DNA of 64,000 nt from Nitrospirales bacterium. GTDB lineage: Bacteria; Nitrospirota; Nitrospiria; Nitrospirales; UBA8639. Made by a program: the position numbers and the translations under genes. The notes beneath the pieces were generated by a model that ran no database searches, was not told the DNA's origin, and was given only the letters and a program-made list of their open reading frames with translations. The DNA lies in contig OY820905.2 in NCBI GenBank assembly GCA_963555755.3, positions 1,856,001 to 1,920,000 of the forward strand. The letters run 5' to 3'. Positions 37,156 through 38,371 of the stretch are shown here, in pieces (the stretch's first letter is position 1; each line of letters opens with the position of its first letter).

Positions 37156-38371
37156 CTTGTATAATGCAAGGAAGGGTTGTAGGCCAACTCACCCGAGCTG
37201 CCTCTTGTCTGAAGAGGGCATAGCCAACGTAGGGAAAAGGCTGTACCCTCACGGTATTGTGAATCCTGGCATGATAGACCGTTTGCCCTATGGGAATCAG
37301 CCCGTGACTCAGCGCAGGTCGTCATGCCCTTTCTCTGATGAACCCGAACGGTTGCCTGGGACACCAAGCCCGTATCAACAAGGTTGGGAGACAGAGCGAT
37401 GAAATCAAAATCCTCAGAATTGTTTATCGGTATCGACATTTGTAAAGCTCGATTAGACGTGGCAGACAATGCCAATTCGCTTCCCTGGTCGGTAGCCAAC
37501 AACGACGCCGGCATCGCCGCGCTGGTGGAGCGGCTCCACGTCCTTCACCCCACTCTCATCGTGATGGAAGCCACAGGGGGGCTGGAAACGCTTCTGTATG
37601 CGGCCTTAACCACCGCCGGGTTGCCGGCGGTCGTCATGAATCCCCGTCAGGTGCGGGACTTTGCCAAGGCCCTGGGCACCCTGGCCAAAACCGATGCCCT
37701 GGACGCCCGAATCTTGGCTCGCTTCGGGGCGGCGATCCAACCGGCGGTCCGGCCCATGAAAGACGCCACCACCCAGGAATTGACGGCCTTGGTGACACGG
37801 CGACGGCAGTTGCTTGCCATGCAGACGGCGGAAAAAACCCGCTTCCAGCAAGCAGCCAAATGGATCCGCAAAGATATCAACGCCCATATCGCCTCCCTGG
37901 AAAAACGGCTCCACACAATCGAAGGTCATATTGCCGAGATTATTAAACAGACCCCCGGCTGGAAAGAGAAAGATTCGCTCCTTCGAAGTGTGCCGGGGGT
38001 GGGCAACGTTTTGTCAATGAATCTCCTCAGTAGCCTGACCGAACTCGGAACGCTCAACCGAAGAGAAATCGCCACGCTGGTGGGCGTTGCCCCCTTAAAC
38101 CGCGACAGCGGAAACGTGCGCGGCAACCGAAGGGTCTGGGGAGGCCGGGCCCAAGTCCGCGCCGCCCTCTACATGGCGGCCCTGTCCGCATCACGATTTA
38201 ATCCGGTCATCAAAACATTTTATCAACGCCTGATTGCACAAGGGAAAAAACCCAAAGTGGCCCTCACCGCCTGTATGCGAAAACTTCTGGTCATTCTGAA
38301 TACGATGGTCAAAACCCAAACAGCATGGAACCCAAATCAATATTCAACCCTTGACTTTAATCACGGTTGCT
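37156..38371 (+). mobile_element. IS110-family element with a CT core at both junctions and no TIRs
   Basis: Boundaries defined against the empty site at 10300-10301; CT at 37156-37157 and 38370-38371. Confidence 0.93.
37166..37398 (+). ncRNA. predicted IS110 bridge RNA in the left non-coding end (boundaries approximate)
   Basis: Lies downstream of TATAAT (37160-37165). Two stem/internal-loop units carry target-matching segments (gtttgccct 37281-37289, gactcag 37306-37312) and donor-matching segments (acggttgc 37348-37355, acaag 37378-37382). Confidence 0.85.

Follow-up and report, generated by a model that had tools for sequence, protein, structure and literature searches.

The window analysed here, a 64,000-nucleotide stretch of the genome of a Nitrospirales bacterium (GenBank assembly GCA_963555755.3, contig OY820905.2, positions 1,856,001 to 1,920,000), contains an IS110-group insertion sequence of the IS621 type on the plus strand (37156..38371, both CT cores counted). 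We searched the 4.6 Mb genome to which the window belongs for further copies of the element and of the repeat in which it lies. Eleven copies span all 1,216 bp at 96.5-100% identity, and two are partial, one lacking the right end and the other the 5' 861 bp. The 26-bp left flank has 76 matches in this genome; 10 lead into the element, and the other 66 are followed by a single CT and then by the right flank. Alignment of the copies, taken together with these filled and empty sites, puts the CT cores at 37156..37157 and 38370..38371 (plus strand) and gives a length of 1,214 bp for the element and its predicted circle. The first-pass annotation of this DNA had therefore delimited the element correctly. 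Because filled and empty sites define the ends, they are also set independently of the promoter discussed below.

All copies are inserted at the same CT of a palindromic repeat, the left part of which occupies 37132..37155 and the right part, which includes a terminator-like hairpin at 38455-38471, 38372..38492 (both plus strand). The empty repeat is 147 bp long and has inverted ends. It has 349 BLAST hits in the genome, 184 of them of at least 100 nt, and there are 72 exact empty 14-bp targets. It represents one subfamily of a large palindromic repeat family with 439 matches to the left-end motif and several internal variants. The element lies antisense between two minus-strand genes, for a glycosyltransferase-9 and argS (35346-37103 and 38566-39678), at a distance of 53 bp ahead of the argS start, and may break read-through to argS.

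The recombinase gene (37399..38373, plus strand) encodes 324 amino acids with the catalytic residues D13, E57, D99, D102 and S237. Both PF01548 (the DEDD RuvC-like domain) and PF02371 (the transposase domain with the catalytic serine) score above cut-off, the domain pair that marks the IS110 family. Other family traits are the short core, present as a single copy in the empty site, and the lack of long terminal inverted repeats. The only relatives of the recombinase with solved structures are ISCro4 (PDB 9t56; E 6e-37), which is the closest by sequence, aligns at the catalytic motifs and is likened here by its recombinase only, and IS621 of E. coli (PDB 8wt6; E 5e-35). The nearest named relatives belong to Nitrospirota and Nitrospinota and are 76-90% identical; a plasmid search returned only distant annotated IS110 transposases at about 50% identity. 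With 241 bp of non-coding sequence at its left end and none at its right, the element falls into the IS110 group (IS621-like) and not the IS1111 group. The sub-terminal inverted repeat is short, at 3-4 bp, and covaries among relatives. An 8-bp inverted match further inside this element is not kept in them.

The left end is predicted to specify a bridge RNA (37172..37388, plus strand), the start of which we place 7 nt after the -10 hexamer described below, and which folds into internal-loop modules at about 37268-37328 and 37343-37388. Within these modules we could assign, on the plus strand, the guides of the layout described for IS621 (PMC11208158): a left target guide (37281..37289) identical at 7/9 positions to the left target plus core, a right target guide (37306..37312) that is the exact complement of the core and five target bases (7/7), a left donor guide (37348..37355) matching at 8/8, and a right donor guide (37372..37382) with a 2-nt bulge, as in the IS621 description. 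Four guides in two internal loops are characteristic of the IS110 group. With its four core bases, the right target guide specifies CT-GA, which contains the recombinase stop codon.

Guides in related elements were compared with their own sites and with shuffled pairings. Right target guides follow their own sites (4.48/5 versus 2.16 when shuffled, n=81), left donor guides score 6.94/7 versus 6.32 (81 elements), and left target guides passed in a free register (6.78/9 versus 5.31, n=67) and failed in a fixed one (2.40 versus 2.26). The fold energy of the whole region is no better than that of shuffled sequences (z -0.22), and Rfam gave no match to it at E<=1. Part of the likely ribosome-binding site of the recombinase is covered by the stem (37384-37390) that closes the predicted donor loop. 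The scan for promoters and terminators also gave a weak terminator-like hairpin at 37172-37154 and a minus-strand promoter match at 37446-37419 that is at chance level.

The two halves of a predicted sigma70 promoter lie at opposite ends of the integrated element. The -35 half, TTGACT (38351..38356, plus strand), is embedded in the last recombinase codons with 15 bp following it to the end of the right CT core, and the -10 half, TATAAT (37160..37165, plus strand), begins 2 bp past the left CT core and overlaps both the right donor and the short sub-terminal inverted repeat. Joining the ends yields TTGACT-17-TATAAT, which agrees with the consensus at 11/12 positions and has the arrangement of Pjunc, a right-end -35 brought to within 16-18 bp of a left-end -10. 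In the integrated state the hexamer at the 17-bp spacing reads ATGTTC, and a standard promoter scan of the linear sequence called neither half. The first-pass annotation had given these hexamers, distances and spacing, and we recovered each of them from the sequence, together with a pairing at a spacer of 16 that it had omitted.

It had further proposed that this split promoter faces the bridge RNA and recombinase, a reading supported by a chance control, by the -35 sequences of relatives, by host tRNA promoters and by published tests of IS621 and ISPpu10. Only 17 of 200,000 random CT joints drawn from this genome reach 11/12 at a spacer of 16-18, and the chromosome has only 73 such sites on both strands. 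The host has two RpoD genes above the family cut-off, and at least 10/12 agreement with TTGACA/TATAAT is found upstream of its tRNA genes in 9/46 regions versus 40/3,000 background windows. On this sequence evidence the host uses the TTGACA/TATAAT promoter class. We also considered, and rejected, an extended -10, since there is no TGn and positions -15 to -13 read TTG, and an outward hybrid promoter formed by the right-end -35 and the flank, where the best -10 reaches 2/6.

We also rebuilt the junction in relatives of the element. From 187 loci, 149 were full length and 107 of these had both donor anchors (the 42 without an anchor were dropped), leaving 84 unique junctions. The donor motif, and not the -35, fixed the right end; the first three -10 bases served as an anchor; and end mapping from multiple copies worked in 5/13 groups. 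TTG occupies the exact -35 position in 77/84 unique junctions and the best -35 reaches at least 5/6 in 71/84, whereas integrated flanks never exceed 4/6 (0/92); these counts are descriptions and not tests, because the relatives are kin and not independent. Information content at TTGA is 1.4-1.6 bits versus 0.4-0.6 in the free spacer.

The same bases have other duties, and the hexamers could therefore be by-products, with the -10 fixed by the donor and inverted repeat, the -35 fixed by an ancestral stop codon or by protein binding, and the joint not a working promoter. All six -10 positions lie within the right donor or the short inverted repeat, where 66-81 of the 84 junctions pair at each of four positions. 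The -10 is accordingly not independent evidence, because the recombinase needs the same bases and the first three served as anchor. In 53/84 relatives the recombinase gene stops at the TGA within the -35, and this overlap is a second reason for -35 conservation. There is also a precedent in ISPpu9, the circles of which are reported to form no junction promoter (PMC12288879), so that the junction-promoter rule for IS110 elements has exceptions. However, TTG is kept in 24/31 junctions in which the -35 does not double as a stop, including 10/10 with a borrowed stop (see below), and this element has the full -10 consensus although this leaves one mismatch in its inverted repeat, whereas in two relatives (L031 and L045) the repeat matches completely and the -10 reads TATGAT. 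Together with the rarity of 11/12 joints in this genome, these points make the by-product explanation very improbable.

No circle joint was found in the contigs of eight of the 24 public runs listed, two of the eight being RNA libraries. This counts against a junction promoter to the extent that contigs can; they cannot show the circle's absence, because contigs drop rare forms. The joint was likewise not found among the 187 loci of relatives or in the element's own genome, where the single match is an unrelated donor-like site.

A different possibility is that the promoter already works well in the integrated state and that the circle adds little. When the element is integrated, the target repeat supplies a weak stand-in -35, TGTTCA (37138..37143, plus strand; 3/6, spacer 16), giving TGTTCA-16-TATAAT with a score of 9/12 and a sequence that is almost invariant across the copies. 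For other copies, the integrated left joint is spanned by contigs from both RNA-library runs, although DNA carry-over is possible, and linear IS621 is reported to be transcribed at a low level (PMC13626964). Against this, the stand-in lacks TTG, the -10 is not of the extended type, 1.5% of random joints reach 9/12, and the flanks of relatives stay at or below the 4/6 given above. We therefore regard a fully effective integrated promoter as highly unlikely. The claim that the promoter exists only in the circle nevertheless stands only in part. The split hexamers do come together on joining, but 'only' is too strong because the weak 9/12 pairing is present in the integrated state, because of the low-level transcription of linear IS621, and because a head-to-tail dimer would form the same joint. 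The integrated pairing may supply basal transcription for a first excision.

The reading that we favour, as very probable, is that the excised circle would form a strong sigma70 promoter, which would likely drive the bridge RNA and recombinase for re-insertion. It draws on the ends, core, target repeat, four guides, hexamers and spacing, which are established on the sequence, and on analogy with studied elements. Low basal transcription of the integrated element, from TGTTCA-16-TATAAT or by read-in from the flank, would provide enough complex for an occasional excision. Transcription of the circle would then start at about 37172, until insertion at a further repeat copy split the promoter again.

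Junction promoters are, as the first-pass annotation stated, known in the IS110 family, with published cases in IS621, ISPpu10 and ISEc21. In IS621 a sigma70 promoter is rebuilt across the joined ends (PMC11208160, PMC13626964). Pjunc of ISPpu10 combines a right-end -35 with a left-end -10 and was demonstrated with a lacZ fusion; its native promoter is described as weak (PMC12288879; bioRxiv 10.64898/2026.03.19.712850). Reporter and RNA-seq tests are published for IS621 and ISPpu10 (PMC11208160, PMC13626964, PMC12288879), and circles of ISEc21 and ISEc11, in which the abutting ends create a promoter, are drawn in bioRxiv 10.1101/2024.04.26.591405. Because it has been shown for IS621 and ISPpu10 and drawn for ISEc21/ISEc11, the junction promoter is not new in kind: it is already understood, and the present element bears out, in a new host group, a rule that had already been published.

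IS621 is the closest parallel in overall design. The two elements share a DEDD and serine recombinase, a CT core, a long left end with a bridge RNA, four guides, a bulged right donor guide and a short donor inverted repeat, insertion into a palindromic repeat, and a sigma70 promoter, here a predicted one, across the joined ends. They differ in target, in the length of the RNA (about 217 nt predicted here versus 177 nt) and in host, which here is Nitrospirota-like. The right end of IS621 is non-coding and about 105 bp long (derived from 298 bp of joined ends and a 191-bp left end; PMC11208160), whereas in the present element the coding frame continues into the core and needs target bases for its stop. 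ISPpu10 of Pseudomonas putida resembles it in its CT core and in being an IS110 element that inserts into repeats (REP in that case); unlike the present element it has a tested antisense RNA, and the accessible text on ISPpu10 mentions no borrowed stop codon, with the term 'stop codon' absent from that of 10.64898/2026.03.19.712850. ISEc11 is described as an IS1111-group element with a downstream RNA and long inverted repeats, and ISEc21 as targeting IS3 coding sequence, and both thus differ from the element studied here.

The recombinase frame has no stop codon inside the element. Its TGA (38371..38373, plus strand) is made up of the T of the core and the first two target bases in 11/11 intact copies. 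After circularisation the frame would continue in phase through an 81-codon open frame covering the whole left end (37157..37402, plus strand; 79 codons in one copy) and end at an ATGA on the recombinase start, for a total of 405 amino acids. Because no stop precedes the joint, the circle cannot encode the 324-residue form. To judge from the sequence, it would yield either a 405-residue read-through product or a stop-less message. There are no plus-strand terminator-like sites inside the element, the nearest being in the right part of the repeat, and a circle transcript would therefore likely run across the joint. A weak search for a longer protein containing the left-end peptide found none among 13 candidates. 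When the element is integrated, the same frame is opened by an ATG that lies in the target repeat (37151-37402); it then has 83 codons, ends on the recombinase start and has no well-placed ribosome-binding site.

An internal stop is absent from 10/84 unique junctions, and all ten use T|GA. In a quick tree of 71/86 proteins (15 were left out for frameshifts or stops), the eight stop-less rows need three changes, at least two of them forced by well-supported branches, a pattern suggesting that the borrowed stop arose in two or three lineages. The simplest reading is that an ancestral stop was lost by frameshift or mutation and that the loss was tolerated because the target supplies a stop. Recombinase genes that overlap the recombination site, with a frame end that depends on the flank or on circularisation, occur in Tn5397 (TndX) and in IS630-type elements with TA stops, which belong to other enzyme families and are not RNA-guided. 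For IS110 recombinases, we found no report of a target-supplied stop in the openly readable literature searched. The state-dependent C-terminus is the sole part of the system that may be new.

We asked whether the 81-codon extension bears signs of selection. Selection at the protein level was unsupported, with substitutions distributed evenly among the codon positions, and each relative would keep an open frame by chance with a probability of 0.23-0.50. Among 89 variants, one single-variant stop gain was observed versus 3.1 expected (1 versus 1.7 and 3 versus 3.9 in the other frames), so that stop avoidance in the extension is marginal. The extension is closed early in 3/10 stop-less elements (L045, L118 and L142), and a count by eye finds this frame open in about 17 of the 76 elements that have a stop of their own.

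Circularisation could in principle act as a double switch that builds the promoter and at the same time removes the stop supplied by the guide-chosen target, with the 405-residue form being functional, although we consider this unlikely. Under such a scheme, translation would proceed over the joint and through the bridge RNA on its second lap, melting the stem that covers the ribosome-binding site, and ribosomes would initiate again at the overlapping ATGA. The existence of two forms, or the amounts of each, would make the enzyme favour insertion of the circle over excision, and an insertion at an off-target site without GA would yield an enzyme that is terminated wrongly. If the difference in C-terminus is functional, it would add a translational layer to the question of insertion versus excision studied for IS621 (PMC13626964). 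Whatever its function, the circle must encode a C-terminus other than that of the integrated copy, and cloning the recombinase from the element alone gives no stop. The element offers a compact bridge recombinase, annotated in full, that comes with a predicted junction promoter close to consensus and with a natural target present in many copies.

Two further sites in the same genome resemble parts of the element. At G000:C1:2215825-2215907 (G000 being this genome) there is a lone left end, 77% identical, with a CT core and a TATGAT -10 and with no recombinase gene behind it, which is a remnant of a related element. A perfect 14-bp donor-site match at G000:C1:735341-735354, for which a simple count gives a chance of about 0.03, lies inside a long open frame without an upstream -35 and could, as a pseudo-donor, recombine with the 72 empty targets and so cause rearrangements.
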